Shown here: positions 3,423-25,038 of the stretch, in pieces
Layout: each line of letters starts with the position of its first letter
Numbering within the stretch: the stretch's first letter is position 1
Assembly (NCBI GenBank): GCA_964638895.1
Contig: CAZWYY010000013.1
Coordinates: 2,522-66,521, forward strand
Direction: 5' to 3'
Source: an uncultured Spirochaetaceae bacterium
GTDB lineage: Bacteria; Spirochaetota; Spirochaetia; SZUA-6; RPPD01
DNA length: 64,000 nucleotides
The notes under the pieces: generated by a model
Seen by the model: the letters and a program-made list of their open reading frames with translations, nothing else
Database searches by the model: none
Told to the model about the DNA's origin: nothing
Position numbers and translations under genes: made by a program

Positions 3423-3695
3423 ATGAGTAATAACGGAGACGTAAAGGCAAAGATAAAAGAGCTTTTGGCCGAAGTGACGGGTGACACCGCATTGTCGGGA
3501 AATCTAACGGACTCCTCCGATCTTATCAATGAGATCGGTCTGGACTCGATCCAGATGATCAATTTTATCCTTATGGTCGAGGATGAATTCGGGATCGAGA
3601 TTGATTTTGAGAACTTCGATTACACCAATTTCGAACGCTTTGACTCTTTCTGTCAATTTGTCTCGGAAACCGTGAAGTACCAGACGGTTTCATAA
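3423..3695 (+). CDS. Stand-alone acyl/peptidyl carrier protein (ACP-like)
   Basis: 90 aa, acidic, GLDSIQ phosphopantetheine-attachment-type motif; RBS AAAGGAGAGAA upstream. Confidence 0.65.
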   Translation: MSNNGDVKAKIKELLAEVTGDTALSGNLTDSSDLINEIGLDSIQMINFILMVEDEFGIEIDFENFDYTNFERFDSFCQFVSETVKYQTVS

Positions 3696-3716
3696 GCTTG
3701 CAATAAAGGGATTCTC

Positions 3717-5003: not shown

Positions 5004-5006
5004 ATC

Positions 5007-6734: not shown

Positions 6735-6752
6735 ATGGGAGGGAAATGAGCA

Positions 6753-8087: not shown

Positions 8088-8098
8088 AGGAGACATAA

Positions 8099-9243: not shown

Positions 9244-9269
9244 CCGCCGTCTTTGTAAGGAGGATTATT

Positions 9270-10442
9270 TTGCAGCCAAAAACAGCGGTCAGGTTTGACC
9301 GGAAATCGTTCGAACGTATTAAGCGGACCATACGCAATATGTCGGTGGGCAGGAGCTCCATCAGGCAGGATCCCGGGTTTGCCATGAGGCTTCCCGATGA
9401 AATCGGCATCCAGTTGACCAACAAATGCAATCTGCGCTGCCGCCATTGTTTTCAATGGAATGAGGAGGGTTTTTTCAACAGCTTTGACAAGGGAACACAG
9501 AAAGACGAGCTTGATTTCCCGCTGATAGAAAAAATTCTGGCTCAAACGGCGGGCGTCAAATCCAACCTGTATTTATGGGGCGGTGAACCGCTTTGTTACA
9601 CCCACTGGGATGAGCTTTCGTATGCCCTGGAAAAGGATCCGCGTTGGACGGTCTTCTGTACGAACGGCATCGATGTTGAGAAGAAACTCGAGTCCCTGCT
9701 GCGGGTGTCCTCATCACTCGCCATGCTTGTCAGCGTTGAGGGGTTCGAGGAAGAGCACGACGCGGTCAGGGGCCGGGGTACGTATAAGAAGGTGATGGAA
9801 AGTATCGATCTGTTATTGAAGCTGAAAAGACAAAACAAGTTCAAGGGAGAGGTGTCCGTCAACTGTGTGATAAACGAGAGTATGATCGGGAAGCTGTATC
9901 AGTTCGCCCGGATGTTCGAGGAAAATGGCATCAACACCCTGTATTTCTGTTTTCCGTGGTACATCCCCCGCTCGTCCGCGCTGCATATGGATGCGTTCTT
10001 TAAAAAGAACTTCGGCTGGCTGCGCACATTGGACAATGACCATGCCGCGAGTTGGCATTCCTATACATACCATCTTTCCCCCGACGTGACGCGCGCGCTG
10101 ACGGCCGATTTGGGCCGGGTAAGCGAAAAGGTTTGGAAAATAAGAATGCGTTACCAGCCCGCGCTTAAGCCCGGAGAGATTGAAGGTTTTATCAGGGGTG
10201 AGGAAACCACAGCCCAGAAAAGAAGCAAATGTATCGGTCTTACCAACCGCATGAATGTCATGCCGTCGGGAAAGGTCACCGTCTGTAAGCTATTCCCGGA
10301 ATTTGAAATAGGCGACCTTACGGGTTCGGGCGTTGAAGAGGTATGGAACAATGAGACCTTCAGGCGGGTGCGTGAAATCTTAAATCGGGGACTGACCCCG
10401 GTCTGTTCAAAATGCATTCTCCTTTATCTGCACGGGGTGTAG
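9270..10442 (+). CDS. Radical SAM/SPASM-domain enzyme (AtsB/PqqE-like architecture)
   Basis: LTNKCNLRCRHC, GGEPL, C-terminal CIGL...VCKLFPEFEIGDL...CSKC; TTG 9270 with AAGGAGG at 9257-9263. Confidence 0.7.
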   Translation: MQPKTAVRFDRKSFERIKRTIRNMSVGRSSIRQDPGFAMRLPDEIGIQLTNKCNLRCRHCFQWNEEGFFNSFDKGTQKDELDFPLIEKILAQTAGVKSNLYLWGGEPLCYTHWDELSYALEKDPRWTVFCTNGIDVEKKLESLLRVSSSLAMLVSVEGFEEEHDAVRGRGTYKKVMESIDLLLKLKRQNKFKGEVSVNCVINESMIGKLYQFARMFEENGINTLYFCFPWYIPRSSALHMDAFFKKNFGWLRTLDNDHAASWHSYTYHLSPDVTRALTADLGRVSEKVWKIRMRYQPALKPGEIEGFIRGEETTAQKRSKCIGLTNRMNVMPSGKVTVCKLFPEFEIGDLTGSGVEEVWNNETFRRVREILNRGLTPVCSKCILLYLHGV

Positions 10443-10451
10443 CGGATTACA

Positions 10452-11528
10452 ATGAAGACCTACAGCTTTGTTATTCCCACGTATAATAAAAAAGCACTCC
10501 TAAAGAACACGCTTGAAGCGCTGAACTACCAGCCGGGCTACGGCTACTATGAAGCGGTTGTGGTGGACGACGGCTCGGACGACGGCACCCGTGATTATAT
10601 CAAGGAAACGGCCAGGAATTACGAGCTGAAGTATCTCTACCTGGAAAGGGATATGAATTCGTGCCGGGCCAGAACAAGGAACCACGGATGGAAGAACGCC
10701 GGGGGCGAGGTGATTGTCTTCATCGATTCGGATATAATCATCAAGCCGGATTACCTGGCGGAGCTTGAGCGCTGCTTTGGGCTTGATGATGATATCGCGG
10801 TTATCGGCAACAGGCTGATGCTGCCGGAACCGTCGACATATAAAGAGGTGACCGGCCTGGAGATCTACCGGAAATACGGCTTCGGCGGGCATAAGGATCT
10901 GCGGGAGTTCCGGTACCTTTTATACGGAGATACCTCCTACAATATCAACGCCCATGCCTACCCCTGGACGCAGTTTTACAGTTGTAATGCGGCGCTGCCG
11001 AAGAAATGCCTGGAACAAACCGGCGGCTTTGATGAAAATTTCAAGGGCTGGGGCGTGGAGGACATTGAGCTTGGTTATGAGCTGTATAAAAGGAACATTC
11101 CTATTGTCATAAACCATAAACTGGAAGTGTTTCATCAGTATCACGGTCCGAGGAACGACCTGTCCATTAAGCCTGAGCTTGTTCCCGACTATGAAAGGAA
11201 TATCGCTTACTTTCTAAAGAAACATCCGCAGTCGCTACACATGCCCGACAAGTATAAGTATGATTTTTTAAAAGGCGAGTTAAAGGACGATTCGTTTTTT
11301 AGCGAAAACGGCAAGCGGTATATCGGCGTGGATTTCAGAGACCGGTCTCAATTGGGTAATCTGAAGAACCTGCTGCTCAAGTCGATATCCAGGGATAAAA
11401 CCGTCATAGTGGTTAATGACTACCTTGAAAATACGGACCTTGATATCTGGATTCAGCTTCCCAAAAAGCAGGGGCAGATCACGGCCCGCTATTTCCCAAT
11501 GTCAAAAAAGGCGGAACGGCACGGATGA
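10452..11528 (+). CDS. Family 2 glycosyltransferase with a conserved C-terminal extension
   Basis: FVIPTYNK, VVDDGSDDGT, FIDSDI; paralog of 14112-15290 including the tail VNDYLENTDLDIWI...YFPMSKK. Confidence 0.7.
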   Translation: MKTYSFVIPTYNKKALLKNTLEALNYQPGYGYYEAVVVDDGSDDGTRDYIKETARNYELKYLYLERDMNSCRARTRNHGWKNAGGEVIVFIDSDIIIKPDYLAELERCFGLDDDIAVIGNRLMLPEPSTYKEVTGLEIYRKYGFGGHKDLREFRYLLYGDTSYNINAHAYPWTQFYSCNAALPKKCLEQTGGFDENFKGWGVEDIELGYELYKRNIPIVINHKLEVFHQYHGPRNDLSIKPELVPDYERNIAYFLKKHPQSLHMPDKYKYDFLKGELKDDSFFSENGKRYIGVDFRDRSQLGNLKNLLLKSISRDKTVIVVNDYLENTDLDIWIQLPKKQGQITARYFPMSKKAERHG

Positions 11529-12328
11529 GAGTCTTTATCACGGTTATAAAACTCTACCTCAAGGTGATGATCCAATACCGCACAACCTTCATGCTTTCGC
11601 TCATCGGGGAGCCTGTGCTGTATCTGATCAATATCATTTATTTTTCCGCCATCTATGCCTACAATGGCAAGGACACGGTTTTGGGTTATAGCCTGACCCA
11701 GATGATATGGTATTTTGCCGGTATATCACTTGTCTGGCAGTGTATCTGGAACTCCACCGACAATAATATCTCTCAAAAGATTCTATCCGGCGACCTGGCG
11801 GTAGACCTGTTGAAGCCGTTTTCCACGTTAAAACTGGAACTGGCCTATGCCCTGTCGGCGAGAATCCTGGCCGTTATGCTGGAGTTTGTACCGGTTCTGG
11901 CCATATACATGCTGCTTTTTTTCCCCGGGTTTATCACCATTTTTGTGGTAATCAAATTTTTGATCGTCATGCCCCTGTCTTTTCTTATGTTTTTTCTGTT
12001 GAACTACCTGATCGGGCTGACGGCATTTTTTATTAAAAACAATACCTCCCTGCAGACCGTCAAGTACGTGCTTATTACCCTGACGGCCGGCGGGTTCATT
12101 CCCCTGGATTTTTTTCCGCAATGGGTGCAGCGCGTAACCGGAGTGCTGCCGTTTCAATACCTTTTTTACTGGCCAATTCAGATCCTTTTAAACCGGGAAA
12201 CGACAAAGGGGTGGGAAAATTTTACGCGAATCGTTTCCTGGCAGTTGTTATGGATAGCGGGCTTTTATCTTTTATCCAGGATTTTCTGGAAACGGGCAAT
12301 AAGAAAATATTGCGCCGTGGGGGGATAG
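11525..12328 (+). CDS. ABC-2 type transporter permease
   Basis: About six hydrophobic segments; C-terminal KRAIRKYCAVGG similar to the next permease; 4-nt overlap with upstream gene. Confidence 0.55.
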   Translation: MRVFITVIKLYLKVMIQYRTTFMLSLIGEPVLYLINIIYFSAIYAYNGKDTVLGYSLTQMIWYFAGISLVWQCIWNSTDNNISQKILSGDLAVDLLKPFSTLKLELAYALSARILAVMLEFVPVLAIYMLLFFPGFITIFVVIKFLIVMPLSFLMFFLLNYLIGLTAFFIKNNTSLQTVKYVLITLTAGGFIPLDFFPQWVQRVTGVLPFQYLFYWPIQILLNRETTKGWENFTRIVSWQLLWIAGFYLLSRIFWKRAIRKYCAVGG

Positions 12329-12377
12329 CGTAATATTAATCCTCAACCTGTTCAGATTTTTCTTACTCAACAGCAGA

Positions 12378-13124
12378 TTGAAACTGTTACGGGGAATGCA
12401 GTACAAGACCGACTTCTTCATGGGCATATTTCTGTCCATGAGCTTTTCCAGTCTGGGTCCCCTTTTCCAGTACCTTATCTTCAGCCAGACAAGGGGATAC
12501 CCGCGCTGGAACCTGAAGCAGATCATCCTATTCCAAGGTGTGGTACTCTTATGGCTGGGTATAAAAGACCTGCTTTTCGGAGAAATACGCGGTTACGTGG
12601 AGAGTATGGTAAAAGGAGGGAATTTCGACAGGCTGCTGCTTAAGCCGTATCCCCCTCTGGGCGTTATCCTGACCAGCGGCTTCTATTACCATGCCTTTGG
12701 CACGATTATCGCGGGAGCGGTAATCATTGCCGTTTCCCTTCAGCAGTTGGGACTGGTCTTAAGCTGGTGGCAACCGCTGCTTTTCGTGGGTTTCTTTGCC
12801 TGCGGCATTTTGCTGCATATGACCATAACCATATTGTACTGTATCATGATTATCAGGCTTACCCACATGGGACGGCTGGGAGAAATCATCGACAAACTGC
12901 TCCAGTTCTCCCAATATCCCCTGGATATCCTTTCCCCGGTTCTCCGCATGGCCCTGATGGTGTTTCTGCCGATCGCCATCTGGATCTATTTCCCCACGGA
13001 GATCCTGCTTGACAGGCTTGAGGTGAACGCTTTCATGGGAGTGGCGGTGGCTCTTGCACTCTTCTTTGCCAGTCTTTTTTTATGGAAGAGAAGCCTTAAG
13101 AGATATACCAGTGCGGGAGGGTAG
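12378..13124 (+). CDS. ABC-2 type transporter permease (second subunit)
   Basis: Polytopic hydrophobic protein; C-terminal KRSLKRYTSAGG. Confidence 0.55.
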   Translation: MKLLRGMQYKTDFFMGIFLSMSFSSLGPLFQYLIFSQTRGYPRWNLKQIILFQGVVLLWLGIKDLLFGEIRGYVESMVKGGNFDRLLLKPYPPLGVILTSGFYYHAFGTIIAGAVIIAVSLQQLGLVLSWWQPLLFVGFFACGILLHMTITILYCIMIIRLTHMGRLGEIIDKLLQFSQYPLDILSPVLRMALMVFLPIAIWIYFPTEILLDRLEVNAFMGVAVALALFFASLFLWKRSLKRYTSAGG

Positions 13125-13127
13125 GTT

Positions 13128-14111
13128 ATGAGTGATAACATTATCAAAATAAAAAACTTAAAGAAGGTCTTCAAGGTGCGGGTAAAAAGTAAAGAAGGCA
13201 TGTGGGCTTCGGTAAGGCTGCTGTTTAAAGGAGAGTACAAGCTGGTGACCGCGGTTGACGGATTGAGCATGAATGTGAAAAGGGGCGAGATAAAGGGGCT
13301 GATCGGTCCGAACGGTGCCGGAAAGTCCACCACCATCAAAATAATTTCTGGTATTCTTTTTCCCAGTGAGGGTACCGTGGATGTGCTGGGGTTTACGCCG
13401 TGGCTGCAGAGGAGGGAGTACGTCAGGCACATCGGCGTACTCTTCGGTCAAAAAACGCAGTTGTTTTGGGATTTACCCCCTATGGACACCTTTTTACTGC
13501 ACAGGGAAATGTATAAAATACCCGAAAAGCGCTTTCGGAAAAACGTGGCGTATTTTAAACAGGTGCTGCAGCTGGAAGAGGTGGTAAAAAGGCCCGTACG
13601 GAATCTCTCCCTGGGAGAGAGGATGAAGTGCGAGCTGGTGTGCGCCATGCTGCATGAGCCGGAGCTTGTCTACCTGGACGAGCCGACCATCGGGCTTGAC
13701 CTGTTTGCCAAAGAGTCCATCAGGAATTACATCAAGCGGATTAAGAAAGAGAAAAACACCACCTTTATCCTGACCACCCATGATCTGAATGAAATTGAAA
13801 ATATCTGTGAAAACGTCAGTATCATCAATAAGGGCAAAATCGTATATAACGGGGCGCTGGAGAATCTCAGCTCCTTTTTTACAAAACGGAAGATTATCGA
13901 GGTGAAGTTTACGCGGAAAACGGACACGACGGCGCTGGGTAATTTCAAGATTGTTTCCTCCAACCCCTTTTCCGTAAAGATCGAGGTGGACCTGACAAAA
14001 AACAAGATTCAGGACGTCGTGTACGGTATTTTTAACGTACTGCCGGTACAGGACATCAATATACAGGATGTCGGTATCGAGGATATCATAAAACAGATTT
14101 ATACACGGTAA
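13128..14111 (+). CDS. ABC transporter ATP-binding protein with a ~90-aa C-terminal extension
   Basis: GPNGAGKSTT Walker A, LSLGERMKCEL signature, LVYLDEPTIGLD Walker B. Confidence 0.8.
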   Translation: MSDNIIKIKNLKKVFKVRVKSKEGMWASVRLLFKGEYKLVTAVDGLSMNVKRGEIKGLIGPNGAGKSTTIKIISGILFPSEGTVDVLGFTPWLQRREYVRHIGVLFGQKTQLFWDLPPMDTFLLHREMYKIPEKRFRKNVAYFKQVLQLEEVVKRPVRNLSLGERMKCELVCAMLHEPELVYLDEPTIGLDLFAKESIRNYIKRIKKEKNTTFILTTHDLNEIENICENVSIINKGKIVYNGALENLSSFFTKRKIIEVKFTRKTDTTALGNFKIVSSNPFSVKIEVDLTKNKIQDVVYGIFNVLPVQDINIQDVGIEDIIKQIYTR

Positions 14112-15290
14112 ATGAAGTACAGTATTGTAATTCCCACCCATAACAATAAAATCCTCTTGAAAAATACGCTGGAAGCCTTAAACCGCCAAAATGGATTCGG
14201 GAAAGACGATTACGAGGTGATCGTGGTCGACGATGGTTCACAGGACGGTACGTGGCGCTTTATCCGTGGGGTAGGGAGAAACTACGAATTAAAATACCAC
14301 TACCTTGAAAGGTGCAAGGACTCTTGTCGCGCCAGAACCAGGAATTACGGGTGGCGGAACGCCGGCGGTGATATTGTGGCGTTTATCGATTCCGATATCC
14401 TGGTGGCGGATGACTATCTCTTACAGCTTGAACGTTGCTTTTCAATAAGCGAGGATATCTTGTTAATAGGCAACCGCCTCATGCTCAACAAGCCCGTCTC
14501 CCCGGGGAGTATTGCCGGCGGAAGGGTGTTCAGGGATTTTGGTTTTGACGGAAATGATTTCAGTATCCTGGAATTCCGTTATTTTCTGTACGAGGTAGCG
14601 TCTTATAACGCCAATGCCATCATGTGTCCCTGGATGCAGATTTACAGCTGCAATATGGCCGTTTCGCGGAACTGGCTGCACAAGGTCGGGGGTTTTGATG
14701 AGCGCTTCAAGTTTTGGGGCATGGAGGACCTTGAAATCGGTTTTGCCCTTTACGACGCCGGGATCCAGATCGTTATCAATCCCAAGTTGGAGGTTCTGCA
14801 TCAATACCACGGCAGGCGCAATGATCTGGTGGTGGAGCAGAGAAAAATCGCCGGGTATGAAAAAAATATCGATTATTTCCTGGACAAACATCCCCACGCG
14901 CTCCGCATGGGTAGAAAATTCGCCTACAAATTATTCAAGGGGGAAATATCCTCTGATAAAATGCTTATCGACAACAAATGGGAAAAGACCGTGCTGGATT
15001 TCAGGGACAGTACCAGGCTGAATGAGATCAAGGACGTGATTTTAAAATTAAGCGCCAAAGAAAAAATAAAGCCTATTGTCAATGATTATGTTGAGGATAC
15101 AGACCTGGATATCTGGATCAACCTGCTGGGCGTCACACCCAGCGTAGTGAAGTATTTTCCCATGTCGAAAAGGCTCCCTGCGGGCAAGATGCTGAGTTTT
15201 TTGAAAGAGGAGAAAGCACGACAGCTCGGCACCCCGCCGACCGGATCCTGCCGCGAATTTAATACCGATGGAATAAGAAATGCAAATTAG
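14112..15290 (+). CDS. Family 2 glycosyltransferase (paralog of 10452-11528)
   Basis: IVIPTHNN, VVDDGSQDGT, FIDSDI; conserved tail VNDYVEDTDLDIWI...YFPMSKR. Confidence 0.7.
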   Translation: MKYSIVIPTHNNKILLKNTLEALNRQNGFGKDDYEVIVVDDGSQDGTWRFIRGVGRNYELKYHYLERCKDSCRARTRNYGWRNAGGDIVAFIDSDILVADDYLLQLERCFSISEDILLIGNRLMLNKPVSPGSIAGGRVFRDFGFDGNDFSILEFRYFLYEVASYNANAIMCPWMQIYSCNMAVSRNWLHKVGGFDERFKFWGMEDLEIGFALYDAGIQIVINPKLEVLHQYHGRRNDLVVEQRKIAGYEKNIDYFLDKHPHALRMGRKFAYKLFKGEISSDKMLIDNKWEKTVLDFRDSTRLNEIKDVILKLSAKEKIKPIVNDYVEDTDLDIWINLLGVTPSVVKYFPMSKRLPAGKMLSFLKEEKARQLGTPPTGSCREFNTDGIRNAN

Positions 15291-16260
15291 TATCCAACTT
15301 GAGAGGGTTGCCTGCAATATGAAATGTAGGGCATGTTATAATCATGACGGAAACCTCAGGCAAACTTCTCACGGCGCCGAAACCCGAAAATTGTTTTATA
15401 AAATAGAATTTATCAGACAGTCCATGGAGATATTTAAGGATTTATCCGTGGAAATTTTCGGCGGGGAGCCTTTTGTCTCTAAGGAAGAGCTTTATTTTTT
15501 GCTGGAGTATCTGTTTAAAAAAAACATACCGGTTTTTATCGTTACCAATGGAATTTTGCTTAATGAAAAGACCGTAAAACGTATTGCCAAATACGGGAAT
15601 CTGCTGCTTTTGGTGTCTTTTCACAGCTACAGGGAAAGAGGGTACAATTTGTACACCAATTCAAAAGGTAATTACCCCATCCTTGCTAAAAATTTGAAGT
15701 TATTGGTGAAGTATAATATCGATTTTAAACTCACCACCGCATTAATGCGTTTGAATGAAAATTATATCGTGGATCAAATCAGCTTTTTTAAAGAGAGTTT
15801 CAACCGGCCGGTCTACTTGTCATTTATTAATCCCACCTTCAACAATACCGACTGGCTTAAACTGCAGATAATGGCGCCCGCGCAGATACAGGAAACACTG
15901 TTGAGTATCCGCAAAAACCATCCGGATGTGTTGAGTGATATTGATATGGAGTATGTCTTCGATTATTACGACGGGAGATGCAAGGGACAACCATGTGATT
16001 TTATGAGTAAAAACCTGATTTTAAATAATAACGGGGTTTTAAACCTGTGTTTTATCGGTGATACACTGCCCTTTGATTTTTTTGAACTTCCGGACTTAAG
16101 CTCGTATATGGAATACATATATCCAAAAAACCGGGAATTACAAACATCAAATTTTTGTAAAAACAACAGCTGCCAGATATTGCAGGTAACCTGCAGGGAA
16201 AAGTTTGTACCCCGATATAGTACCGCAGGTGAAAAGGAAACAAATTTATGCAAGCATTGA
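15280..16260 (+). CDS. Radical SAM enzyme with C-terminal Cys residues
   Basis: CNMKCRACY, FGGEPF; overlaps upstream gene by 11 nt. Confidence 0.6.
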   Translation: MQISIQLERVACNMKCRACYNHDGNLRQTSHGAETRKLFYKIEFIRQSMEIFKDLSVEIFGGEPFVSKEELYFLLEYLFKKNIPVFIVTNGILLNEKTVKRIAKYGNLLLLVSFHSYRERGYNLYTNSKGNYPILAKNLKLLVKYNIDFKLTTALMRLNENYIVDQISFFKESFNRPVYLSFINPTFNNTDWLKLQIMAPAQIQETLLSIRKNHPDVLSDIDMEYVFDYYDGRCKGQPCDFMSKNLILNNNGVLNLCFIGDTLPFDFFELPDLSSYMEYIYPKNRELQTSNFCKNNSCQILQVTCREKFVPRYSTAGEKETNLCKH

Positions 16261-17681
16261 AACATAAAAAACAGAAGACCAGGCTGTTGCTGCTTCGCCC
16301 TTTTTATGGGATCACGGTTCACGGTGACATGCACGGCGACCTGGGGATCTCCGATCACCATCCGCATATTTACCCGGATCTGTCCTTTATTTACGCGGCA
16401 ACCATCGCCAAACACTCCCGGGTTACAGACCTGCACGTTATCGACGCCAATTCCGGTGAGTTTATGCCGGCGGCCGTATGGACGCAGATGGAGGATTATT
16501 ATGATATCATTATAATAAAAACCGCGGCGCCTACCGTGCGGTATGACCTGATGCTCGCAAAAGAGATTTTGAAGCGTTATCCCTTTTCCAGGGTCATACT
16601 GGCGGGGCAGGCGGCGAATCTCGTCCGAGGCTGGATAGAACGTAATCTGCCGGGCATATATGACATAGCGCGCGTTCCTTTGGAGTATTACGTACATAAC
16701 ATGATTTACGGTAGCCAAGAAATCTGTATGAATGATCTGCCCAGTCCTGATTATTCCCTGTTTCCCTATGAGAAACTCAGGGATATGGACGGGAATTTAC
16801 GCGGCTCGCTGTATACAAGCCGCGGCTGCGCGGTAGGCTGTTCGTACTGCCCGTATTCGCATTTTTACGGGCGTAACATGGAGTTCCGCTCCCCTGAACT
16901 GGTGATAAATGATATCAAACATCTTCTGGCTTTGGGTTTCAAGAAAATTCTTTTTCGCGACCAGTATTTTTCAATCAATCCGAGAAGAACCGAAGAGATC
17001 TGCCGGATGATTCTAAAACAGGGACTCAGGTTCAACTGGGAGTGCGAAACGCGGCTTGAGTCGCTTACGCCGAAGCTCATTAACCTTATGACGACAGCCG
17101 GAATGGATATGGTGTGTTTCGGCGTGGAGACCGCCTCACCGCAAACCCTGGAAACATACAACAGGCCCCCGGTTGACGAGGAAAAACTGGTGAAACTGAT
17201 CAATCACCTGCACACCAGGAAGGTAATGACCATAGCCTTTTACATGATTGGTTTTCCCAGGGACACATGGAGCATAATCCGTCAGACCTATGAGCTTGCC
17301 GTGCGCCTGGCCAGCAACAGCGCAAAATTTTCAATCTTCTCACCCTGTACCCCCCTTGTATATCCCCACCTGGAGCTGACCCCCGCGGAATTCACGCCCC
17401 TTGAGAATACCATGACCACCAATCCCTGTAAAAACCTGAGCAGAAAGGAGCTTGAGTTTCTGGTGGACCATTTGAACAATCTTTACCACACGGACATTGT
17501 GCGAAAAGAATCACGCAAAAAAAACTACATTGAGGTTATCTATAGGTTTCACGTTATGCACCAGATGAGATATCACAGCCTGGTAAAATACCTTAAAAAA
17601 AAGCTTGCGGAAGATAAAATCTTCAATATTGCCGTAAAAAAAGTCCAAAGGAGAAGAGCAAATGCATACAAGAGGATTTGA
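16248..17681 (+). CDS. B12-binding-domain radical SAM enzyme (class B-like)
   Basis: N-terminal LLLLRPFYG Rossmann-like region, then YTSRGCAVGCSYCPY. Confidence 0.6.
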   Translation: MQALKHKKQKTRLLLLRPFYGITVHGDMHGDLGISDHHPHIYPDLSFIYAATIAKHSRVTDLHVIDANSGEFMPAAVWTQMEDYYDIIIIKTAAPTVRYDLMLAKEILKRYPFSRVILAGQAANLVRGWIERNLPGIYDIARVPLEYYVHNMIYGSQEICMNDLPSPDYSLFPYEKLRDMDGNLRGSLYTSRGCAVGCSYCPYSHFYGRNMEFRSPELVINDIKHLLALGFKKILFRDQYFSINPRRTEEICRMILKQGLRFNWECETRLESLTPKLINLMTTAGMDMVCFGVETASPQTLETYNRPPVDEEKLVKLINHLHTRKVMTIAFYMIGFPRDTWSIIRQTYELAVRLASNSAKFSIFSPCTPLVYPHLELTPAEFTPLENTMTTNPCKNLSRKELEFLVDHLNNLYHTDIVRKESRKKNYIEVIYRFHVMHQMRYHSLVKYLKKKLAEDKIFNIAVKKVQRRRANAYKRI

Positions 17682-18831
17682 AAGCAACAAGGGAACCATT
17701 AAAGGCCCCAAGAAGATGCAGGGCAGGTACTGCCTGCAGCCGTTTACCAATATTGATATTCACTCCAACCATGGGGTCCGCTGCTGCAGTGAGTCCTGGA
17801 TGCCGTCGTGGATCGGGGATTTTTCCACGCATAACCTGAAGCAAATTTGGAACGCGCCCGCCATCCAGGCCATACGGCAGAGTATTTTGGACGGAAGTTA
17901 TTCATTTTGTGATTGGCATCAATGTCCTTTTTATTGCAATGACTCCTATTACCTGTACTCGCGGGAGGAGTTGGAGAATCCGCAGGGCCTTGGAGGGGTG
18001 GACGCATACAGACTTGCGAAATACGCGCCATGGATCAGGTATATTCTGCAGGAAAAAACCGAACTCGACATCCTGCCCGCCAATTACAACCTGGCCTATG
18101 ATGAAACCTGTAACCTGGCCTGCCCCAGCTGCCGCAAAAAAAGGGTGGCTTTCAGGAAGGGGGCGGAGTATACCCTGCGCTTGGGGATTCATAACAAGCT
18201 GTTAAAGGAGGTTAAGGAGAACGGGTTTGAACATATCGGACGCTTTAACCTGACCGGCTCCGGTGAACCCTTTGTGTCTCGTATTTTCACTGATTTTCTC
18301 TATAACTTTGACGGCGGGAAGTATCCGCGCCTGGATATTAATATTCAATCCAACGGGGTTCTCTTTACTCCCGCGGCCTGGGCCAGGATGAAAAAAATCC
18401 ACGTTAATATCAATGAGGTTATTATTTCATTGGACGCCTGCTGTGCCGAGACCTATAAAAAAATCCGGGTAAACGGCTCCTATAAAAAACTCCTGGTCAA
18501 CATTGAATTCCTGGCCGCGCTGCGCGCACAGGGCAAGATCCGCCGTTTTATGCTGGCTTTTGTGGTACAGCAAAAGAATTACCGTGAAATGCCCCGGGCC
18601 GTAAAAATGGCGAAATACTACGGCGCGGATCTTTTTATCTTTAATCTGTTAAACGACTGGAAATCGTGGAGTCCCCGGGATTATGAGGCAAACGCTGTGT
18701 GGAAGAGTTTTCATCCGGAATTCGAGGAGTTTCTGGGGGTTTTAAGGGATCCCGTGTTCAATGACCCCATTGTTGACCTAGGTAACATGATCGAGTATCG
18801 CAATAGGGCCTATTCTTATGCCGGGGCTTAA
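17662..18831 (+). CDS. Radical SAM enzyme with an N-terminal Cys-rich region (related to family A)
   Basis: CLQPF...HGVRCCSESW...CDWHQCPFYC, then CNLACPSC and LTGSGEPF. Confidence 0.6.
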   Translation: MHTRGFESNKGTIKGPKKMQGRYCLQPFTNIDIHSNHGVRCCSESWMPSWIGDFSTHNLKQIWNAPAIQAIRQSILDGSYSFCDWHQCPFYCNDSYYLYSREELENPQGLGGVDAYRLAKYAPWIRYILQEKTELDILPANYNLAYDETCNLACPSCRKKRVAFRKGAEYTLRLGIHNKLLKEVKENGFEHIGRFNLTGSGEPFVSRIFTDFLYNFDGGKYPRLDINIQSNGVLFTPAAWARMKKIHVNINEVIISLDACCAETYKKIRVNGSYKKLLVNIEFLAALRAQGKIRRFMLAFVVQQKNYREMPRAVKMAKYYGADLFIFNLLNDWKSWSPRDYEANAVWKSFHPEFEEFLGVLRDPVFNDPIVDLGNMIEYRNRAYSYAGA

Positions 18832-18857: not shown

Positions 18858-20249
18858 ATGAATATATTTCCAAGCACGTTTCATCGAAAAAAGCCCATGC
18901 TCATAATGTCCAATGGAAGCGAGCGCGGGGAGTTTGTGCCGATCGGGCGTATTTTTTCATGCACGCAGAGAATACATGACGGTATCCAGGCCTTAAAGGC
19001 TTATTATCCGTACGAGGCCAACTGGTCACCGCATCATAAAATATCCGAGGTAAGCCGCCGGGAAGAGGTGGATTTTGCCTGGGGCTATGAGTATGAGGAT
19101 TACCATCCCTTCAACCTGAATGCACGGGGGGGTGACTGCCGGGGGCAGTTCGAGGATATTAAGCGTTACGGGTCGGATCTGCACCTGACATTGGCCATGG
19201 ACCTTTCGCTGGGCGACAGGGATATAGAAGAGGTGATACGATCTTTAGGGCCGTACGGGCGCATATTCTTAAGGATTAACCATGAATGTAACGGCAACTG
19301 GTTCCGCTTTAATAAATACCACAGTTACAAAGAGGTAAACGATTTTTTTGTCCGCTGCCACCGGATTGTGAAGGCCAATTCATCACAGATATTTACGGTC
19401 TTCAGTTTAAGCGGGGATTTTTTTGCCCGGGAAAAGGTGGTCAGCGACTTCTTTTTACGGATCGCACCGGATGAGATGAGAGAAGCGCTTGAGCTGGCCG
19501 ATTATTGGTCCCTGGACAGGTATTCTTCTCTGCACTACGGCTGGCCCTTTGAGCAGACCATAAACCCAGAAAGCACGAATTCGTATTTCAAGGGCACGGC
19601 GGATGACTGGTGGCATTTAATTGAAGAGTGCTACCTCAGCATGATCTGGCATAACGGTTTGAAAATGAAACCGCTGTTCATTAATGAGTTTAATGCGGAT
19701 TCCAACGTTGACGGCCTTCAGGTTCAGGCGGAAATCGTGGGCAGCGTTTATGATAGGCTGTCAAGGGGAGATTTCGCCTGGCTTGCCGGAATCGCCTTTT
19801 ATCAGTACCGCGACCTGGGAGGACTGGGCCTGGAGAAGGGAAACACGGATAAGTTCTCCGAGAACCCCGTACTGGAAGTGTATCGCCGGGCCGTGAACAC
19901 CATACGCTACCATACAAAAATCGAAGACTGGCAGGAATGGCCGCGGGGCGAGTACTATTTCTCCTGGTACAACTCCGATTCCATCCGTGGATTATGCGTT
20001 CGCGGCGCCGGGGAACAAAAACAGTTTACCAACATCCTTCCGGTTCCGGTATACCTTGTGCTTGAAGAACAGCAGTGGGTGCGGCTTGAATCCGGGCAGG
20101 CATGCGGTATAAACGGACAGGAGCAGTTTTTTATGCTTGTGCCTCCCTATGTGGATGCGGCTGATAGAATTCAATATTCATTTGAGGTGCGGGACATTAA
20201 ACAGGCTTTGGGCCGGATGATGGCGGTGAAAAGTGAAATCTGCAATTAA
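18858..20249 (+). CDS. Hypothetical protein, possibly a TIM-barrel glycoside-hydrolase-like fold
   Basis: 463 aa, no Cys cluster; weak motifs LRINHECNGNW and FINEFNADSN; RBS GGGGGG upstream. Confidence 0.25.
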   Translation: MNIFPSTFHRKKPMLIMSNGSERGEFVPIGRIFSCTQRIHDGIQALKAYYPYEANWSPHHKISEVSRREEVDFAWGYEYEDYHPFNLNARGGDCRGQFEDIKRYGSDLHLTLAMDLSLGDRDIEEVIRSLGPYGRIFLRINHECNGNWFRFNKYHSYKEVNDFFVRCHRIVKANSSQIFTVFSLSGDFFAREKVVSDFFLRIAPDEMREALELADYWSLDRYSSLHYGWPFEQTINPESTNSYFKGTADDWWHLIEECYLSMIWHNGLKMKPLFINEFNADSNVDGLQVQAEIVGSVYDRLSRGDFAWLAGIAFYQYRDLGGLGLEKGNTDKFSENPVLEVYRRAVNTIRYHTKIEDWQEWPRGEYYFSWYNSDSIRGLCVRGAGEQKQFTNILPVPVYLVLEEQQWVRLESGQACGINGQEQFFMLVPPYVDAADRIQYSFEVRDIKQALGRMMAVKSEICN

Positions 20250-21315
20250 TAATTATTTAGACGCGGAGCAAACCGAGGAAGAAATTAAGCGCGGGTTCGA
20301 GGAAAATATCTCCGCTTACCTGGACTGCCGCTATGCCGTCCCGGTTGTCAATGGCACGGTTGCGCTTGAGGTTGCCCTGCGCGGGCTGGGCCTCTCACGG
20401 GGAGACTGCGTTATTGTGCCTGATATCTCCTTCATCGCCACGGCCACGGCCGTGGCCAATTGCGGCCTGGTGCCGGTGTATGCGGATGTAAGTCCCACAT
20501 ACTTCGGACTTACCCTGGAAACACTGCAAAACAGGAATTGTTCCGGGGTAAAAGCCGTGGTGCTGGTACATTTTTCCGGGTTTGTCAACAGGGAGCTGTT
20601 TGAGATAATCGAATACTGTTACAGTAACGGCCTGGCCCTGGTGGAAGACTGCGCCCAGGCGTTTGCCTGTACGGCCCACGGTAGAAAGGTGGGCACCTTC
20701 GGCGACGCGGGCGCGTTCAGTTTTCAATCCTCCAAAAGTATAAGCGCCGGTGAAGGGGGGCTTGTCTGCACCGACAAGCGGCACCTGGCCGCGCAGTTCC
20801 AGGCCGTTTCCGACTGGGGGATGAGCCCCTTGTTTAAGCGCCGAAAACTTGCGCTTGCCAGCAGCAACTTCCGGCTCAGCGCCCTGCAGTGTTATGTTTT
20901 GGGCCGGAAACTCGAACATATCGACAGCACGGTAGCGGCAAGACGCGAACGCTGCGCCCGGTTGGAAGACGCCTGCCGCGAACTGGGCCTGGAACACTGT
21001 CTGCCTGCCCCCAGACCGGAATATTTTGACTGCCCCTTCTTTTTTCCGCTGAAAAGCGCGCGCAAACTTAACAGCATAGAGCCCCGGGAAGAGTCTCCCC
21101 TGCATAGATCCGCCATAGTAGTCGCCATTCTGGAACGCTTTTACCCGGATCTGCTGAAGCGGTATTATGAACTCAATCCTCCCGGGGTCATGTCGGAATT
21201 CGCCGGCAACAAGGTTATTACTGATATTGATTTTATCAACATCAGCCAAACATGGAATCTGCCCGCGGATCAGGTAGTGTCTGCGTACAAGGAGGCGGTG
21301 TTATGTCGGAAATAA
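20233..21315 (+). CDS. DegT/DnrJ/EryC1/StrS-family PLP-dependent (sugar) aminotransferase
   Basis: VNGTVALEVAL, GDCVIVPDISFIATA, FSFQSSKSISAGEGG (PLP Lys). Confidence 0.75.
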   Translation: MKSAINNYLDAEQTEEEIKRGFEENISAYLDCRYAVPVVNGTVALEVALRGLGLSRGDCVIVPDISFIATATAVANCGLVPVYADVSPTYFGLTLETLQNRNCSGVKAVVLVHFSGFVNRELFEIIEYCYSNGLALVEDCAQAFACTAHGRKVGTFGDAGAFSFQSSKSISAGEGGLVCTDKRHLAAQFQAVSDWGMSPLFKRRKLALASSNFRLSALQCYVLGRKLEHIDSTVAARRERCARLEDACRELGLEHCLPAPRPEYFDCPFFFPLKSARKLNSIEPREESPLHRSAIVVAILERFYPDLLKRYYELNPPGVMSEFAGNKVITDIDFINISQTWNLPADQVVSAYKEAVLCRK

Positions 21316-22325
21316 TGGCCCTGCGGCACCAGTTTGAAAAAACCGAAAATATTCTGCTTGTAGACTGGTGTGTCAGCAATATCTGTAATTTCGCCTGCTC
21401 GTATTGCCCGGAACATACCCACGCGGGTACGCATCCGTTTATGCCAATTAAAAATATCCTACTGTTTTCGGACCGGATTGTGGATCACTACGTAAAGAAA
21501 CTGCATAAAGAGGTCTATTTTCTTTACACGGGTGGCGAGGTGACCTTGTATAAGGATTTTATTCCCCTGATCCGCACTCAAAAAGAGAACGGCCACCGTG
21601 TGAGTATCAGTACCAATGGATCGCGCAGGTTGTCCTTCTGGCAGGAGGTTAAAAAATACCTGTTCCAGGTAAGCATGAGCTACCACGATGAGTATACGGA
21701 CCTGGATCATTTCATCAATGTAATAAACCTGATAAAGTCGGACACCTATACCCATGTTAATATCATGGTCCAGCCCGACCGCTTCCAGCAGTGTCTGGAC
21801 GCGGCCTACCGGGTGCTGCATGAAACCGATGATATCACCATCGATCTCCAGATTGTGTTGAGGGATTTCATCGAGCCTTACCCATATACAAATCAGCAGC
21901 GCAGGCTCATCATCGCGGTGGGTAAGGAAATCAACGGCAAACTGAAACTAAAACGCAAGCGGGACAGTTACCGCGGGCTGATGAAACTTGTGTTTCGTGA
22001 CGGCTCACACGAGTTGGTAAAACCCGGTGATCTTCTAACAAGAAATTTGCACGCCTGGCGGGGCTGGAGCTGTTACATTGGTCTTGAGATCCTGGTGGTT
22101 GATCTGAACGGTGATATCTACAGGAGCTGGTGCGGCGACGCCGGTAAAATCGGGAATATTAATGATGAACAGATACACTTTCCCACAAAACCGCATATCT
22201 GCGGCAGGGCCTATTGCAGCGGGGGGATCACCGACACCATGGTCACAAAAATCAAGGAGGCATGTAATGAGCAGCCGGACGACAGCCGGAGTGTTCTCGC
22301 CGTTTACAATCAGGGACGGGTTTGA
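21303..22325 (+). CDS. Radical SAM enzyme, family B (paralog of 2333-3358)
   Basis: CNFACSYC, YTGGEVTLYKDF, C-terminal WRGWSCYIGL...CGRAYC; AAGGAGG RBS before ATG 21303. Confidence 0.7.
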   Translation: MSEIMALRHQFEKTENILLVDWCVSNICNFACSYCPEHTHAGTHPFMPIKNILLFSDRIVDHYVKKLHKEVYFLYTGGEVTLYKDFIPLIRTQKENGHRVSISTNGSRRLSFWQEVKKYLFQVSMSYHDEYTDLDHFINVINLIKSDTYTHVNIMVQPDRFQQCLDAAYRVLHETDDITIDLQIVLRDFIEPYPYTNQQRRLIIAVGKEINGKLKLKRKRDSYRGLMKLVFRDGSHELVKPGDLLTRNLHAWRGWSCYIGLEILVVDLNGDIYRSWCGDAGKIGNINDEQIHFPTKPHICGRAYCSGGITDTMVTKIKEACNEQPDDSRSVLAVYNQGRV

Positions 22326-23292
22326 GCTGTCCAACCGGATAGTGTTCGCCCCCGTATACATAAACAGGGCAAACGAGTCCGCTGAGTTCAGGAATTTCTA
22401 CGCCGGGCGGGCCAAGGGCGGCGCCGGGCTGATAATCACGCCGGTTCAGACAATGGGGGGCTTTACCGATCTTTATACCCCGGCCTTCCGCAAGGCGGCA
22501 CGCATGCTTCTGGATGAATGCAGGGCGCACGGAGCCCGGGTTATCCCGCAGGTATTTTCCGGTGTGGGAGCCTGGGTAAACCGGATGAGTACGCGGGAGC
22601 TTTCCCGCCTGCCTGAGGCCTTCGCGCTCTGCGCACTTAAACTGCGTGAGGCCGGATACCCCGGCATGGAGATTCACGGTGCGCATCACAGCCTGTTCAT
22701 GCACCTGCTGTGCCCCGGTATTAATCAGCGTACCGACCGTTATAACGGCGGTTTGGAGGCAAGAGCCGCCCTTCAGGTTGAAACCGTAAAAGCCGTTAAA
22801 GCCGGGGCGGGACGGAATTTCAGCCTTTTTTACCGCTTGAGCGCCACGGACTTCACTGCGGGAGGTTTTGATATTATCCATGCCGTGGATGTTGCCCGGA
22901 TGCTTGAGCGGGCCGGCGCGGACTGTCTTGATATTTCGGCGGGAGGGACCTCAATCAGCCCCACGGGTTCCGAATGCCCGGACCATACACAGCCGGAGTC
23001 TTGTTTCCGTTCATATTTCAGTAAAGTGAAACGGGCCGTAAAGATTCCCGTAATCGGCGCGGGCAGAATCAACTCACGCGCGGCCGCCGAAAAAATTCTG
23101 GTACAGGGAAGGGCCGACCTGATCGCCCTAGGCAGGACGCTGGTGGCTGATCCCTTCTGGCCGCTTAAAGTCAGACAGGGGAGGGAGACGGAGATTCTGC
23201 CCATGAACGAATGGTATAAATATATGCCCGGGTACCGCTCGGCGGAGCAACATGCCGCGACAGGCGATGGCGCCCTTGGAACTAAAGTATAA
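22267..23292 (+). CDS. Old Yellow Enzyme family NADH:flavin oxidoreductase
   Basis: MEIHGAHHSLFMHLL, RTDRYNGGLEARA, GGFDIIHAVDVARMLERAGADCLDISAGG; start uncertain (ORF track 22111, first ATG 22267). Confidence 0.75.
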   Translation: MSSRTTAGVFSPFTIRDGFELSNRIVFAPVYINRANESAEFRNFYAGRAKGGAGLIITPVQTMGGFTDLYTPAFRKAARMLLDECRAHGARVIPQVFSGVGAWVNRMSTRELSRLPEAFALCALKLREAGYPGMEIHGAHHSLFMHLLCPGINQRTDRYNGGLEARAALQVETVKAVKAGAGRNFSLFYRLSATDFTAGGFDIIHAVDVARMLERAGADCLDISAGGTSISPTGSECPDHTQPESCFRSYFSKVKRAVKIPVIGAGRINSRAAAEKILVQGRADLIALGRTLVADPFWPLKVRQGRETEILPMNEWYKYMPGYRSAEQHAATGDGALGTKV

Positions 23293-23307: not shown

Positions 23308-25038
23308 ATGAGGACCGTGACAAATAAACTGGACAATGGCTATGAGGTGGAGATGGACCCCGGTGCTGAGTTCATTGTGCATGAGATCTGGGACGATTTG
23401 TTTTATGACCGTGATTACCACATCGGACGCGGTGATATAGTCCTGGATATCGGGGCGAATATAGGCATATTTTCGCTTTTCGCCGCATACCGCGGGGCCC
23501 GGGTCTATGCCGTGGAACCGGATGAACATAACTACAATCTATTGTGCTCGAATATTGAAAGGAACGGACTCGGCCGCCGGATTCATCCCATTTTCTGCGC
23601 TGCCGCCAAAAATGACGGTACTATAGCGCTTTACATCCCCCCTGCGGAAAAATTATGCGCGTCCGGCATGATAACAACCTCGCTTGCCCAGATAGAGAAG
23701 CTTACAGGGCATGACACTTCCGGGGTCAGTGTAACCAGGGTGAAATCCGTCTCACTCCCCGGCCTGCTGAGGCAAATAGCGGAAGCGCACATCTCCCTAT
23801 TAAAACTGGATACCGAAGGCGCGGAACTGGATATTCTTCTCGGAACGGACGCGGACGATCTGCGATCCGTGGAGTGCATAGTCATGGAGACACACTCATC
23901 CTATACCGAGCGGGAGCTTTATCACCGGGTGCGCAGGCTGGGATTCGACGTTATCAGTTATGAAAAGCGCACCGGACCTTTCTTAACCGGCTATCTTTAC
24001 GCAAAGAAGGCCCGGGCGGGAAGGCCTGCCGGTCGTACCAGGCCCGTCGCCATCCTCACTGTTCCCGGGAGTGTGGATTCCCCGAACAGTGCCATCGCAG
24101 ACGCCGGACAGAGTTTTTCAACCGTAAACCCGGATTGCTGCGGTCTCGGTTACCGTTTCAGCGTGGATGGGAAGGAGGAACCATTTTCCACCGATCCTGT
24201 CCGGCATATACATTTTAAGAAACCGGGACTTCACCGCATTTCAGTTGATATTCTGGAAGGCGGTATTGACAACTGCAGGCAGAAAAACATGCCGGCCGGT
24301 TTCGGCAGCGACCGGGCCGAGAAAACAGTATGGGTTTTCACCGAGCACTACGGACCGTCCCCGCGCGCCCTGGCCCTGCCCGAACTGGGGAAAAAAAAGG
24401 AGTTTACCGTTTCCGCCCAAACAGAGTTTTTCATACCGGCAGAGAACATTCCCAAGCAATGGGATTATGACGCCCTGGGTATCGGTGTAGGTCTATTGGA
24501 CACGCCCGAAAACCCGGAAGAACCGCACATCAGCCTGCTACATAACGGGGTGCGGACCAAAATCACCTCAAGTTACCAGGAGGTCATTATTCCCGCTTTT
24601 CCCAGGGGGCGCGATCTTTGTTTTTCTTTCGAAAGCGCGTGCAATTTCCGGGTATGCCTGCATTGGTTTGCCAGAGTCGGGGCGGAGGCTCCCGTGCTTC
24701 CGGTGCTTGATTGCCGTAACAGCCGAGGACAGCTTCTTGGAGAAAAATCATCGGCGCATATCTGCCTGTTCGAAGGTGAGGGCCGTTTGGTGGTCGCGCG
24801 GGAGTTATTGCCGAAAACATGGAATCCGGTCTGTGTAAAGATCTGTTTTTCGGTGCACGAGCGGGATACCACAGGAAAGGAACTGGAGGGCGAACTGGTG
24901 TTCAAGGGGCGTTGTTTCACATTACTGGGTTGGTATAAGGAAATTAACTTCAGCGGGGAGGAGATCCGTAACAAAATGGAGTATATGGTGCGGGTGCCGT
25001 GCGCCCGTGTCTATCAGGTTACCTGGTGGCCCGAATAA
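23308..25038 (+). CDS. FkbM-family methyltransferase with C-terminal unknown domain (paralog of 5007-6734)
   Basis: LDIGANIGIFSLFAA, VEPDEHNY; C-terminus YQVTWWPE. Confidence 0.65.
   Translation: MRTVTNKLDNGYEVEMDPGAEFIVHEIWDDLFYDRDYHIGRGDIVLDIGANIGIFSLFAAYRGARVYAVEPDEHNYNLLCSNIERNGLGRRIHPIFCAAAKNDGTIALYIPPAEKLCASGMITTSLAQIEKLTGHDTSGVSVTRVKSVSLPGLLRQIAEAHISLLKLDTEGAELDILLGTDADDLRSVECIVMETHSSYTERELYHRVRRLGFDVISYEKRTGPFLTGYLYAKKARAGRPAGRTRPVAILTVPGSVDSPNSAIADAGQSFSTVNPDCCGLGYRFSVDGKEEPFSTDPVRHIHFKKPGLHRISVDILEGGIDNCRQKNMPAGFGSDRAEKTVWVFTEHYGPSPRALALPELGKKKEFTVSAQTEFFIPAENIPKQWDYDALGIGVGLLDTPENPEEPHISLLHNGVRTKITSSYQEVIIPAFPRGRDLCFSFESACNFRVCLHWFARVGAEAPVLPVLDCRNSRGQLLGEKSSAHICLFEGEGRLVVARELLPKTWNPVCVKICFSVHERDTTGKELEGELVFKGRCFTLLGWYKEINFSGEEIRNKMEYMVRVPCARVYQVTWWPE

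Follow-up and report, generated by a model that had tools for sequence, protein, structure and literature searches.

A Radical SAM Gene Trio in an Uncultured Spirochaetaceae Bacterium Marks the Junction of an Orphan Gene and a Conserved Cassette of Candidate Sugar-Tailoring Enzymes

Results

Three Radical SAM Genes at the Edge of a Cassette

We analyzed a 64,000-nucleotide stretch of DNA (the window) from an uncultured Spirochaetaceae bacterium (contig CAZWYY010000013.1 of assembly GCA_964638895.1), in which three consecutive genes for radical S-adenosylmethionine (radical SAM) enzymes, here called rSAM1, rSAM2, and rSAM3, lie within a single plus-strand operon of 25 genes extending from position 43 to about 28589. 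An earlier note, made from the sequence alone, had read the three as a tightly coupled set whose B12-binding member might methylate a lipid or peptide. We find instead that the trio is not a functional unit: it comprises three unrelated enzyme types juxtaposed by accident in one genome, and it joins a window-specific accessory gene, rSAM1, to the two genes that head a conserved cassette. Across three phyla the invariant core of this cassette is rSAM3, a protein resembling glycoside hydrolase family 26 (GH26), and a DegT-family sugar aminotransferase, usually accompanied by an ABC-2 exporter.

The gene calls themselves stand, each being a plus-strand open reading frame (ORF; Table 1) with a CX3CX2C cluster motif and a match to the radical SAM model PF04055, at 62.9 bits for rSAM1, 65.4 for rSAM2, and 29.3 for rSAM3, the last just below the cutoff of 29.5 bits. 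Among aligned orthologues of rSAM2 and of rSAM3 the motif does not vary. None of the three reaches a curated Pfam or NCBIfam subfamily threshold. Their junctions do overlap, by 13 nucleotides (nt) between rSAM1 and rSAM2 and by 20 nt between rSAM2 and rSAM3; the 11-nt overlap that the earlier note placed within the trio is that of the upstream family 2 glycosyltransferase (GT2) gene with the start of rSAM1. Purine runs resembling Shine-Dalgarno sequences precede all three starts (for rSAM3, AAAGGAGAAG), and for rSAM2 and rSAM3 the start is supported by orthologues whose alignments begin at residue 1, the identical 20-nt overlap recurring in three related loci (L005, L017, and L018). The public call of rSAM1 (P0197, 313 aa) begins 13 codons later, omitting window positions 15280-15318, at the Met within CNMKCRAC; because that start would lose the first cluster-ligating Cys, we prefer the ATG at 15280. 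Throughout the 25-gene operon, neighboring genes typically overlap or lie 0-3 nt apart, so the overlaps of the trio carry no special message. Nor is tight stoichiometric coupling borne out by the related loci: rSAM1 has no counterpart there, rSAM2 and rSAM3 are nonadjacent in Bacillota, and rSAM2 is absent from the gammaproteobacterial loci.

Distribution and Gene Order of the Cassette

The cassette is conserved and horizontally spread. In Spirochaetota it runs, after a LacI regulator and in some loci a short-chain dehydrogenase/reductase (SDR), from rSAM2 through rSAM3, the GH26-like protein, DegT, a further radical SAM enzyme, and an old yellow enzyme (OYE)-family oxidoreductase to an FkbM methyltransferase, which is its last gene and is followed by two MsbA-type ATP-binding cassette (ABC) exporters. 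Metagenome-assembled genomes (MAGs) of Bacillota have the order rSAM3, GH26-like protein, ABC-2 ATPase with two permeases (in some loci), rSAM2, and DegT, and some of their loci hold just four enzyme genes and no glycosyltransferase (L009 10001-15094: rSAM3, GH26-like protein, rSAM2, and DegT), whereas the L008 version, with the ABC-2 exporter, has seven genes. One MAG each of Marinimicrobium and Steroidobacteraceae has the order radical SAM, OYE, SDR, rSAM3, GH26-like protein, DegT, and ABC-2 exporter, with no rSAM2. Homologues of the ABC-2 exporter stand inside or beside the core in L008, L010, L011, and L012. Searches of the literature on radical SAM enzymes with an N-terminal twitch domain, and on the combination of radical SAM, GH26, and DegT genes, found no description of the cassette and no characterized equivalent; it is an undescribed conserved arrangement of putative radical SAM sugar-tailoring enzymes.

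A different gene set surrounds homologues of rSAM2 (45% identity) and rSAM3 (44%) at a locus of Ruminiclostridium sufflavum DSM 19573 (L003, positions 3071-14590) that has neither the GH26-like nor the DegT gene. The partners there are a class-III aminotransferase, a zinc-dependent alcohol dehydrogenase, a haloacid dehalogenase (HAD)-type sugar phosphatase, two GT2s, DUF1349 and DUF362 proteins, a MatE exporter, and a small methyltransferase, and the best match of the alcohol dehydrogenase, below cutoff, is scyllo-inosose 3-dehydrogenase IolM; this set is reminiscent of an aminocyclitol-glycoside pathway. Separately, a stretch of about 400 nt that precedes the core operon in Bacillota (L004 6900-7365; L008, L009, and L010 9535-10000) is 78% identical in four MAGs, which may simply be close relatives, with long invariant blocks and no Rfam match. 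It contains a good TTGACT-17-TACAAT promoter some 270 nt ahead of rSAM3, from which a long conserved 5' leader is implied.

rSAM1 Is an Orphan Accessory Gene

rSAM1 is an orphan accessory gene outside the conserved cassette. A homologue search of 5.8e9 proteins returned three matches, namely rSAM1 itself and two weak ones, and no counterpart was found across 18 related loci. Its GC content (0.379) and GC content at third codon positions (GC3; 0.46) compare with about 0.48 and 0.60 in its neighbors. Besides PF04055 it matches Fer4_12 (6.5e-7), and it ends in a Cys-rich, SPASM/twitch-like tail, GRCKGQPC...GVLNLC...FCKNNSCQILQVTC (pattern CX4C...GX4C...CX4CX6C), with no PF13186 match at E<=0.01.

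In four close relatives (L001, L005, L017, and L018), whose downstream genes are 67-81% identical to those of the window, the slot of rSAM1 is held by a 314-aa SDR of the NAD-dependent epimerase/dehydratase family, the stop of which overlaps the start of rSAM2. No copy of this SDR was found anywhere in the window, and it is missing also from L002 and the Bacillota loci. We suggest that rSAM1 is probably a recently acquired, low-GC gene that may have replaced the SDR nonorthologously. An exchange of a radical SAM enzyme for an NAD-dependent one has a precedent in BtrN (radical SAM) and NeoA (NAD-dependent).

The Closest Solved Relative of rSAM2 Is the Diol Dehydratase AprD4

The AlphaFold2 model of rSAM2 (mean predicted local distance difference test score, pLDDT, 91.5) combines, from N to C terminus, a five-stranded Rossmann domain (residues ~10-160), the radical SAM core (189-351), and a helical domain. 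Among solved structures, AprD4 is the closest relative of rSAM2 and its nearest structural match across all three domains: a profile of 56 homologues matches AprD4 at E=5.2e-51, ahead of MgmA (8.9e-27) and TsrM (7.6e-20), and the match spans the core and the C-terminal domain, with the N-terminal motifs alignable too. The best E value of NF033070, the AprD4 model, among members of the rSAM2 family is 1.3e-43. The class B radical SAM enzymes (TsrM, TokK, CysS, OxsB, MgmA/QCMT, PhpK, and HpnJ) are structurally more distant. In apramycin biosynthesis AprD4 acts on paromamine, whose C3' it deoxygenates as a radical SAM 1,2-diol dehydratase in partnership with the reductase AprD3 (PMC5461906). It does so without binding cobalamin despite a Rossmann-related domain, and together with ArsL it shows that this fold can exist without the cofactor (2026 review, PMC12931638). 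The settings of the two enzymes differ: AprD4 occurs in actinomycetes whereas rSAM2 occurs in anaerobic Spirochaetota and Bacillota, 2-deoxystreptamine genes are not present at the rSAM2 loci, and a possible AprD3-like partner, the SDR, adjoins rSAM2 in the four close relatives but not in the window.

With respect to the B12-binding N terminus that the earlier note assigned to rSAM2, in the window protein the fold is there and the family profile is not: model and structure match both give the Rossmann fold of such domains, the absence of which the note had named as fatal to its reading, and PF02310, the B12-binding model (gathering cutoff, 32.1 bits), finds no match, although most orthologues match it below that cutoff. 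As modeled, the N-terminal domain is a diverged form of the B12-binding fold, and it is closer to PF02310 than is the aligned N-terminal fragment of AprD4. We considered D27-M-H29-G-D-L-G33 as a site of DxHxxG-type cobalamin ligation and rejected it: many orthologues have M, A, or Q in place of H29, and the spacing does not fit. Comparison with the NCBIfam models places rSAM2 in no curated class B family; the best matches (PhpK, 99 bits against a cutoff of 600; HpnJ, 88 against 578; ladderane, 78 against 360) cover only core residues 187-366, and rSAM2 comes nowhere near the cutoffs of PhpK, HpnJ, HpnR, BchE, BzaD, ladderane, TsrM-like, and other B12-dependent families. The canonical B12-binding radical SAM enzyme encoded further downstream in the operon (25063-26457) aligns with rSAM2 only from residue 93 onward, at 25% identity. 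On balance, these sequence comparisons tip somewhat against cobalamin use by rSAM2, and methylation is not its favored chemistry.

rSAM3 Is the Most Conserved Cassette Protein

rSAM3 is 70-81% identical between Spirochaetota and Bacillota, where the other members reach 46-50%, and 57% identical to its gammaproteobacterial orthologues. The N-terminal Cys-rich region remarked on in the earlier note is a conserved feature, with five Cys kept ahead of the core (C24, C41/C42, C83, and C88 in the orthologue alignment) and a match of residues 24-88 to the SPASM model PF13186 (22.5 bits; cutoff, 21.5). The protein also matches TIGR04311 (2.8e-21) and TIGR04317 (9.7e-21). With NF033640, the N_Twi_rSAM family, it shares the architecture of a Cys-rich, twitch/SPASM-like domain before the core but not membership by score (residues 23-358 against model positions 4-337 of 398; 64.1 bits; cutoff, 170), unlike two true members in the same operon (43-1323 and its paralogue 3717-5003).

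An exhaustive HMMER search gave full-length matches to 843 cluster representatives at E<=1e-30, and extra domains are present in many of them. In a sample of the long relatives there are fusions with domains of the GT2, CBM48/AMPK glycogen-binding, sulfotransferase, and methyltransferase types, which by the Rosetta-stone argument point to glycan substrates. Such fused N-twitch modules occur in P0203, P0238, P0250, P0324, and P0337, and some proteins contain two to four rSAM3-like repeats (962-1565 aa).

A search of the Protein Data Bank (PDB) with the rSAM3 sequence returned nothing. BtrN is a radical SAM alcohol dehydrogenase with a twitch domain, partnered by the DegT-family aminotransferase BtrS; rSAM3 likewise is always paired with a DegT-family aminotransferase, its twitch domain being N-terminal rather than C-terminal as in BtrN (2-deoxy-scyllo-inosamine dehydrogenase, PDB 4M7T). 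Because the pairing is obligate, a BtrN-like, ketone-forming role is the most economical guess for rSAM3.

A GH26-Like Protein without Pfam Family and the Remaining Partners

The obligate neighbor of rSAM3 is a 463-aa protein for which we found no Pfam or NCBIfam match and whose homologues, more than 140, are every one annotated as hypothetical. Its AlphaFold2 model (pLDDT 94.2) is a TIM barrel followed by a beta domain, and its profile matches the lichenase CelH of Clostridium thermocellum (PDB 2BV9/2BVD) at E=8.6e-9. Residues R139, N141, H142, E143, G146, W148, and E277 are invariant; we take the R139-W148 motif with E143 to be the acid/base motif of GH26 and E277 to be the nucleophile, both catalytic Glu thus being kept. 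The barrel, its H-E motif, and the two Glu are shared with GH26, whereas the missing Pfam match, the lack of a signal peptide, the additional C-terminal beta domain, and the biosynthetic-looking operon set the protein apart from the GH26 family. Nonhydrolytic chemistry is possible for a GH-like enzyme encoded beside a DegT gene, as with Man15/Cgc13, a dehydratase in pyrrolamide biosynthesis (PMC12983305). Distant relatives (about 30-37% identity) stand alone (L015 10001-11410 and L016 10001-12186), beside a LacI gene in Verrucomicrobia or a PHP_C phosphoesterase gene in Lachnospiraceae. A PHP_C gene flanks the Bacillota core operon too (L004 12674-13363).

The DegT protein retains the catalytic Lys of a pyridoxal phosphate-dependent sugar aminotransferase, and its best NCBIfam matches are LegC, PseC, and DesI, all below cutoff. 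The radical SAM enzyme that follows it is 73-79% identical to its counterparts in the Spirochaetota cassettes and 54-57% to those of Gammaproteobacteria, and the OYE-family oxidoreductase is its conserved, syntenic partner. The FkbM methyltransferase, one of two of about 575 aa in the window operon, is 46-64% identical to its cassette orthologues.

The Surrounding Operon

The density of radical SAM genes in the operon is unusually high, with nine that have an intact CX3CX2C motif and one degenerate paralogue. Upstream of the trio, a carrier protein gene fills an apparent gap between two radical SAM genes, and together with a weakly matching ATP-grasp-like protein it hints that the product carries a side chain of acyl or aminoacyl type; the two GT2 genes bracket the ABC-2 exporter. 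Downstream, the B12-binding radical SAM gene (25063-26457) and the methyltransferase-like gene after it (26478-27722) stand where the relatives carry two MsbA-type ABC exporters. The former is window-specific and has its best NCBIfam match in TIGR03975, the radical SAM C-methyltransferases of peptide maturation (158 bits, below cutoff). Both genes are low in GC3 (0.49-0.54; 0.49 for 25063-26457), like rSAM1, and may have been acquired jointly with it.

Profile searches of the 28-kb operon found no Wzx/Wzy, no Wzm/Wzt (PF01061), no priming phosphoglycosyl transferase, no chain-length regulator, and no nucleoside diphosphate (NDP)-sugar synthase. No Rfam element, cobalamin riboswitches included, was found in the window and seven related loci, and scans for promoters and terminators gave the same counts as for shuffled sequence. 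Precursor peptides sought in the intergenic gaps yielded only the carrier protein in the window and short, nonconserved upstream ORFs in the Bacillota operons. Identification of the radical SAM proteins with the antiphage enzyme pVip was rejected, the matches being partial and confined to the core (31-59 bits over ~150 of 257 model positions; NF038283, 53 against a cutoff of 180), and the PADLOC models of defense systems gave no full-length match. Directly downstream of the operon and convergent to it, a minus-strand gene (29331-32987) encodes a 1218-aa hybrid of a LacI-type periplasmic sugar-binding domain, histidine kinase, receiver, and GGDEF domain, possibly a sugar-responsive regulator.

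Table 1. Genes of the radical SAM operon, with positions in the window and the principal profile matches
Feature	Position	Strand	Matches and remarks
N_Twi-type radical SAM enzyme	43-1323	+	NF033640, 366 bits
Degenerate radical SAM paralogue	1320-2330	+	all three cluster Cys lost; 33% identical to 2333-3358
Radical SAM enzyme	2333-3358	+	paralogue of 21252-22325
Acyl/peptidyl carrier protein	3423-3695	+	90 aa; PF00550, E=6.9e-11; serine motif GLDSIQ
N_Twi-type radical SAM enzyme	3717-5003	+	paralogue of 43-1323
ATP-grasp-like protein (weak)	6753-8087	+	
Radical SAM/SPASM enzyme	9186-10442	+	
GT2	10452-11528	+	PF00535, 1.2e-25; 53% identical to 14112-15290
ABC-2 exporter	11525-14111	+	PF06182 permeases 11525-12328 and 12378-13124; DrrA-like ATPase 13128-14111 (drrA, 205 bits)
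GT2	14112-15290	+	PF00535, 3.4e-22; paralogue of 10452-11528
rSAM1	15280-16260	+	326 aa; C12NMKC16RAC19; PF04055, E=5.2e-17
rSAM2	16248-17681	+	477 aa; C194AVGC198SYC201; PF04055, E=9.1e-18
rSAM3	17662-18831	+	389 aa; C150NLAC154PSC157; PF04055, E=1.2e-6
GH26-like clan GH-A barrel protein	18858-20249	+	463 aa; C-terminal beta domain; no signal peptide
DegT/DnrJ/EryC1 sugar aminotransferase	20233-21315	+	PF01041, E=5.7e-60; catalytic Lys kept (SFQSSK)
Cassette radical SAM enzyme (CNFACSYC)	21252-22325	+	PF04055, 4.8e-11; true start probably near 21303; paralogues 2333-3358 and, degenerate, 1320-2330
OYE-family flavin mononucleotide oxidoreductase	22111-23292	+	PF00724, 2.9e-44; likely start near 22264
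FkbM methyltransferase	23308-25038	+	576 aa; PF05050, 8.6e-18; TIGR01444 above cutoff
B12-binding radical SAM enzyme	25063-26457	+	PF02310, 1.6e-19 (70.4 bits, above cutoff); PF04055, 5.6e-20
Class-I methyltransferase-like protein (weak)	26478-27722	+	

Discussion

A Putative Radical Route to an Exported Deoxy-Amino Sugar

We propose, at a probability of roughly 45%, that the cassette converts a sugar by radical oxidation or dehydration into a ketone, which DegT aminates, and that the resulting deoxy-amino sugar product is exported. The GH26-like enzyme would bind, cleave, or transfer a cytoplasmic glycoside or sugar. rSAM3, equipped with a putative auxiliary cluster in its twitch domain, would abstract a sugar C-H and, like BtrN, convert a secondary alcohol into a ketone by oxidation, and rSAM2 would dehydrate a vicinal diol to a deoxy-ketone in the manner of AprD4, cobalamin not serving as a methyl carrier. 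The ketone or ketones formed by rSAM3, rSAM2, or both would be aminated by DegT to a deoxy-amino sugar, which the radical SAM/OYE pair and FkbM could tailor further before ABC-2 (DrrA-like) or MsbA-type transporters export the product. A carbohydrate substrate, rather than the lipid or peptide entertained earlier, is what the partners indicate: the GH26-like protein, DegT, the GT2s, FkbM, and the fusions of rSAM3 relatives to GT2, CBM48, and sulfotransferase domains.

Several observations weigh against this proposal. Every chemical step is extrapolated across large evolutionary distances: rSAM2 shares only 20% identity with AprD4 (PDB 6FD2) and lies outside its equivalog (NF033070, 80 bits against a cutoff of 500), the PhpK and HpnJ models score as well as or better than NF033070 on its core, and the profile of 12 rSAM3 orthologues touches the core and twitch domain of BtrN only marginally (E about 1e-3). 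The N-terminal domain of the rSAM2 family retains a trace of the cobalamin-binding profile, since orthologues score 14-30 bits with PF02310, subthreshold yet over almost the whole model, 40 of the 56 family members match it at E<=0.01, and TsrM, OxsB, TokK, and CysS align to this domain better than AprD4's own N-terminal domain does. rSAM2 is moreover a frequent but dispensable partner of the core, and the LacI regulator before the Spirochaetota cassettes would suit a catabolic operon too.

The residual cobalamin signal bears most directly on the possibility that rSAM2 is a cobalamin-dependent class B methyltransferase, or another B12-dependent radical SAM enzyme such as an HpnJ-like ring contractase, acting on an unactivated carbon. 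In this gene context a sugar, as for GenK and GenD1, would be a more plausible target than a lipid or peptide, and nothing lipid- or peptide-related is found among the conserved partners. We consider this unlikely, as the window protein escapes PF02310 and all orthologues stay below 32.1 bits, no curated B12-dependent cutoff is neared (99 against 600 at best), the pair D27-x-H29 is not conserved, a separate canonical B12-binding radical SAM enzyme is already present in the operon, and cobalamin-free AprD4 is clearly the best match by structure and profile alike. These same comparisons speak against the B12-dependent C-methylation that the earlier note had thought plausible.

The carbohydrate partners themselves would also fit the decoration of a surface polysaccharide (O-antigen, capsule, or exopolysaccharide) or a flagellin glycan with rare amino and methyl sugars by the radical SAM enzymes, DegT, and FkbM, the ABC-2 transporter exporting the polymer as such transporters do for many glycans. 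The GT2 pair has its best matches in glycosyltransferases of exopolysaccharide synthesis (EpsD and HpsN), and the FkbM methyltransferases, the DegT matches to LegC and PseC, and the rSAM3 relatives fused to GT2 and sulfotransferase domains are in keeping with this. However, because the priming, Wzx/Wzy, Wzm/Wzt, chain-length, and NDP-sugar genes are absent from the 28-kb operon and a four-gene, glycosyltransferase-free version exists in Bacillota, we favor a small exported glycoside, and the Spirochaetota cassettes end in heterodimeric exporters of MsbA type; a surface polymer is unlikely, though a serious rival. A catabolic role, in which the GH26-like enzyme cleaves an unusual beta-linked glycoside anaerobically, the radical SAM enzymes deoxygenate or deaminate, and the aminotransferase runs in reverse, would accommodate the LacI regulators directly before the Spirochaetota cassettes and before a stand-alone GH26-like homologue, the retention of both catalytic Glu, and hosts that are mostly anaerobic polysaccharide degraders. 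It is very unlikely in view of the transporters, which are of exporter type (ABC-2 DrrA-like, or fused ABC_membrane/ABC_tran), the lack of a solute-binding-protein importer, kinase, isomerase, or aldolase, and the biosynthetic character of FkbM, the GT2s, and the carrier protein. Least credible, to the point of being highly improbable, is the maturation of a peptide made on the ribosome and modified after translation (RiPP), possibly glycosylated, with SPASM/twitch radical SAM enzymes cross-linking or epimerizing a precursor, the GT2s glycosylating it, and the ABC-2 transporter exporting it or conferring immunity. SPASM/twitch enzymes are typical RiPP maturases, ABC-2 exporters are common in RiPP loci, the B12-binding enzyme at 25063-26457 is nearest to TIGR03975, and there are weak NCBIfam matches to PapB, ScmE/F, and WgkB; yet all RiPP-family matches are far below cutoff and confined to the radical SAM core, no precursor-like small ORF lies beside the conserved core (the carrier protein being the only small gene of the window operon), no RiPP recognition element, protease, or leader-peptide machinery is found, and the partners that never vary are a sugar aminotransferase and an enzyme of GH fold.

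Implications

In one respect the locus is ordinary, radical SAM genes commonly clustering in biosynthetic operons. What sets the cassette apart is that the rSAM2 family, roughly 50 members nearest to AprD4, lies outside the actinomycetes, in anaerobic Spirochaetota and Bacillota, and is locked to a large uncharacterized family of N-twitch radical SAM enzymes, a GH26-like protein without Pfam family, and a sugar aminotransferase. rSAM2 is also a concrete case in which the annotation "B12-binding radical SAM" likely misleads. The four-gene set of the L009 type is a compact, tractable system for new radical carbohydrate chemistry, and the cassette could yield a first function for the N-twitch radical SAM architecture.

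More speculatively, and on our estimate unlikely, the core together with an AprD4-like radical SAM enzyme and a DrrA-like exporter may be a previously unrecognized radical SAM-driven route to an exported deoxy-amino-glycoside, similar to an aminoglycoside or aminocyclitol, in anaerobic Spirochaetota and Clostridia, in which the glycosidic bond would be made or trimmed by an enzyme of GH fold instead of a glycosyltransferase. If so, the product of the window cluster, with its nine intact radical SAM genes and the degenerate one, two GT2s, carrier protein, methyltransferases, and ATP-grasp-like protein, would be a congener with extensive elaboration, and if the product is indeed an exported amino-glycoside, aminoglycoside-like biosynthesis would extend to anaerobes.

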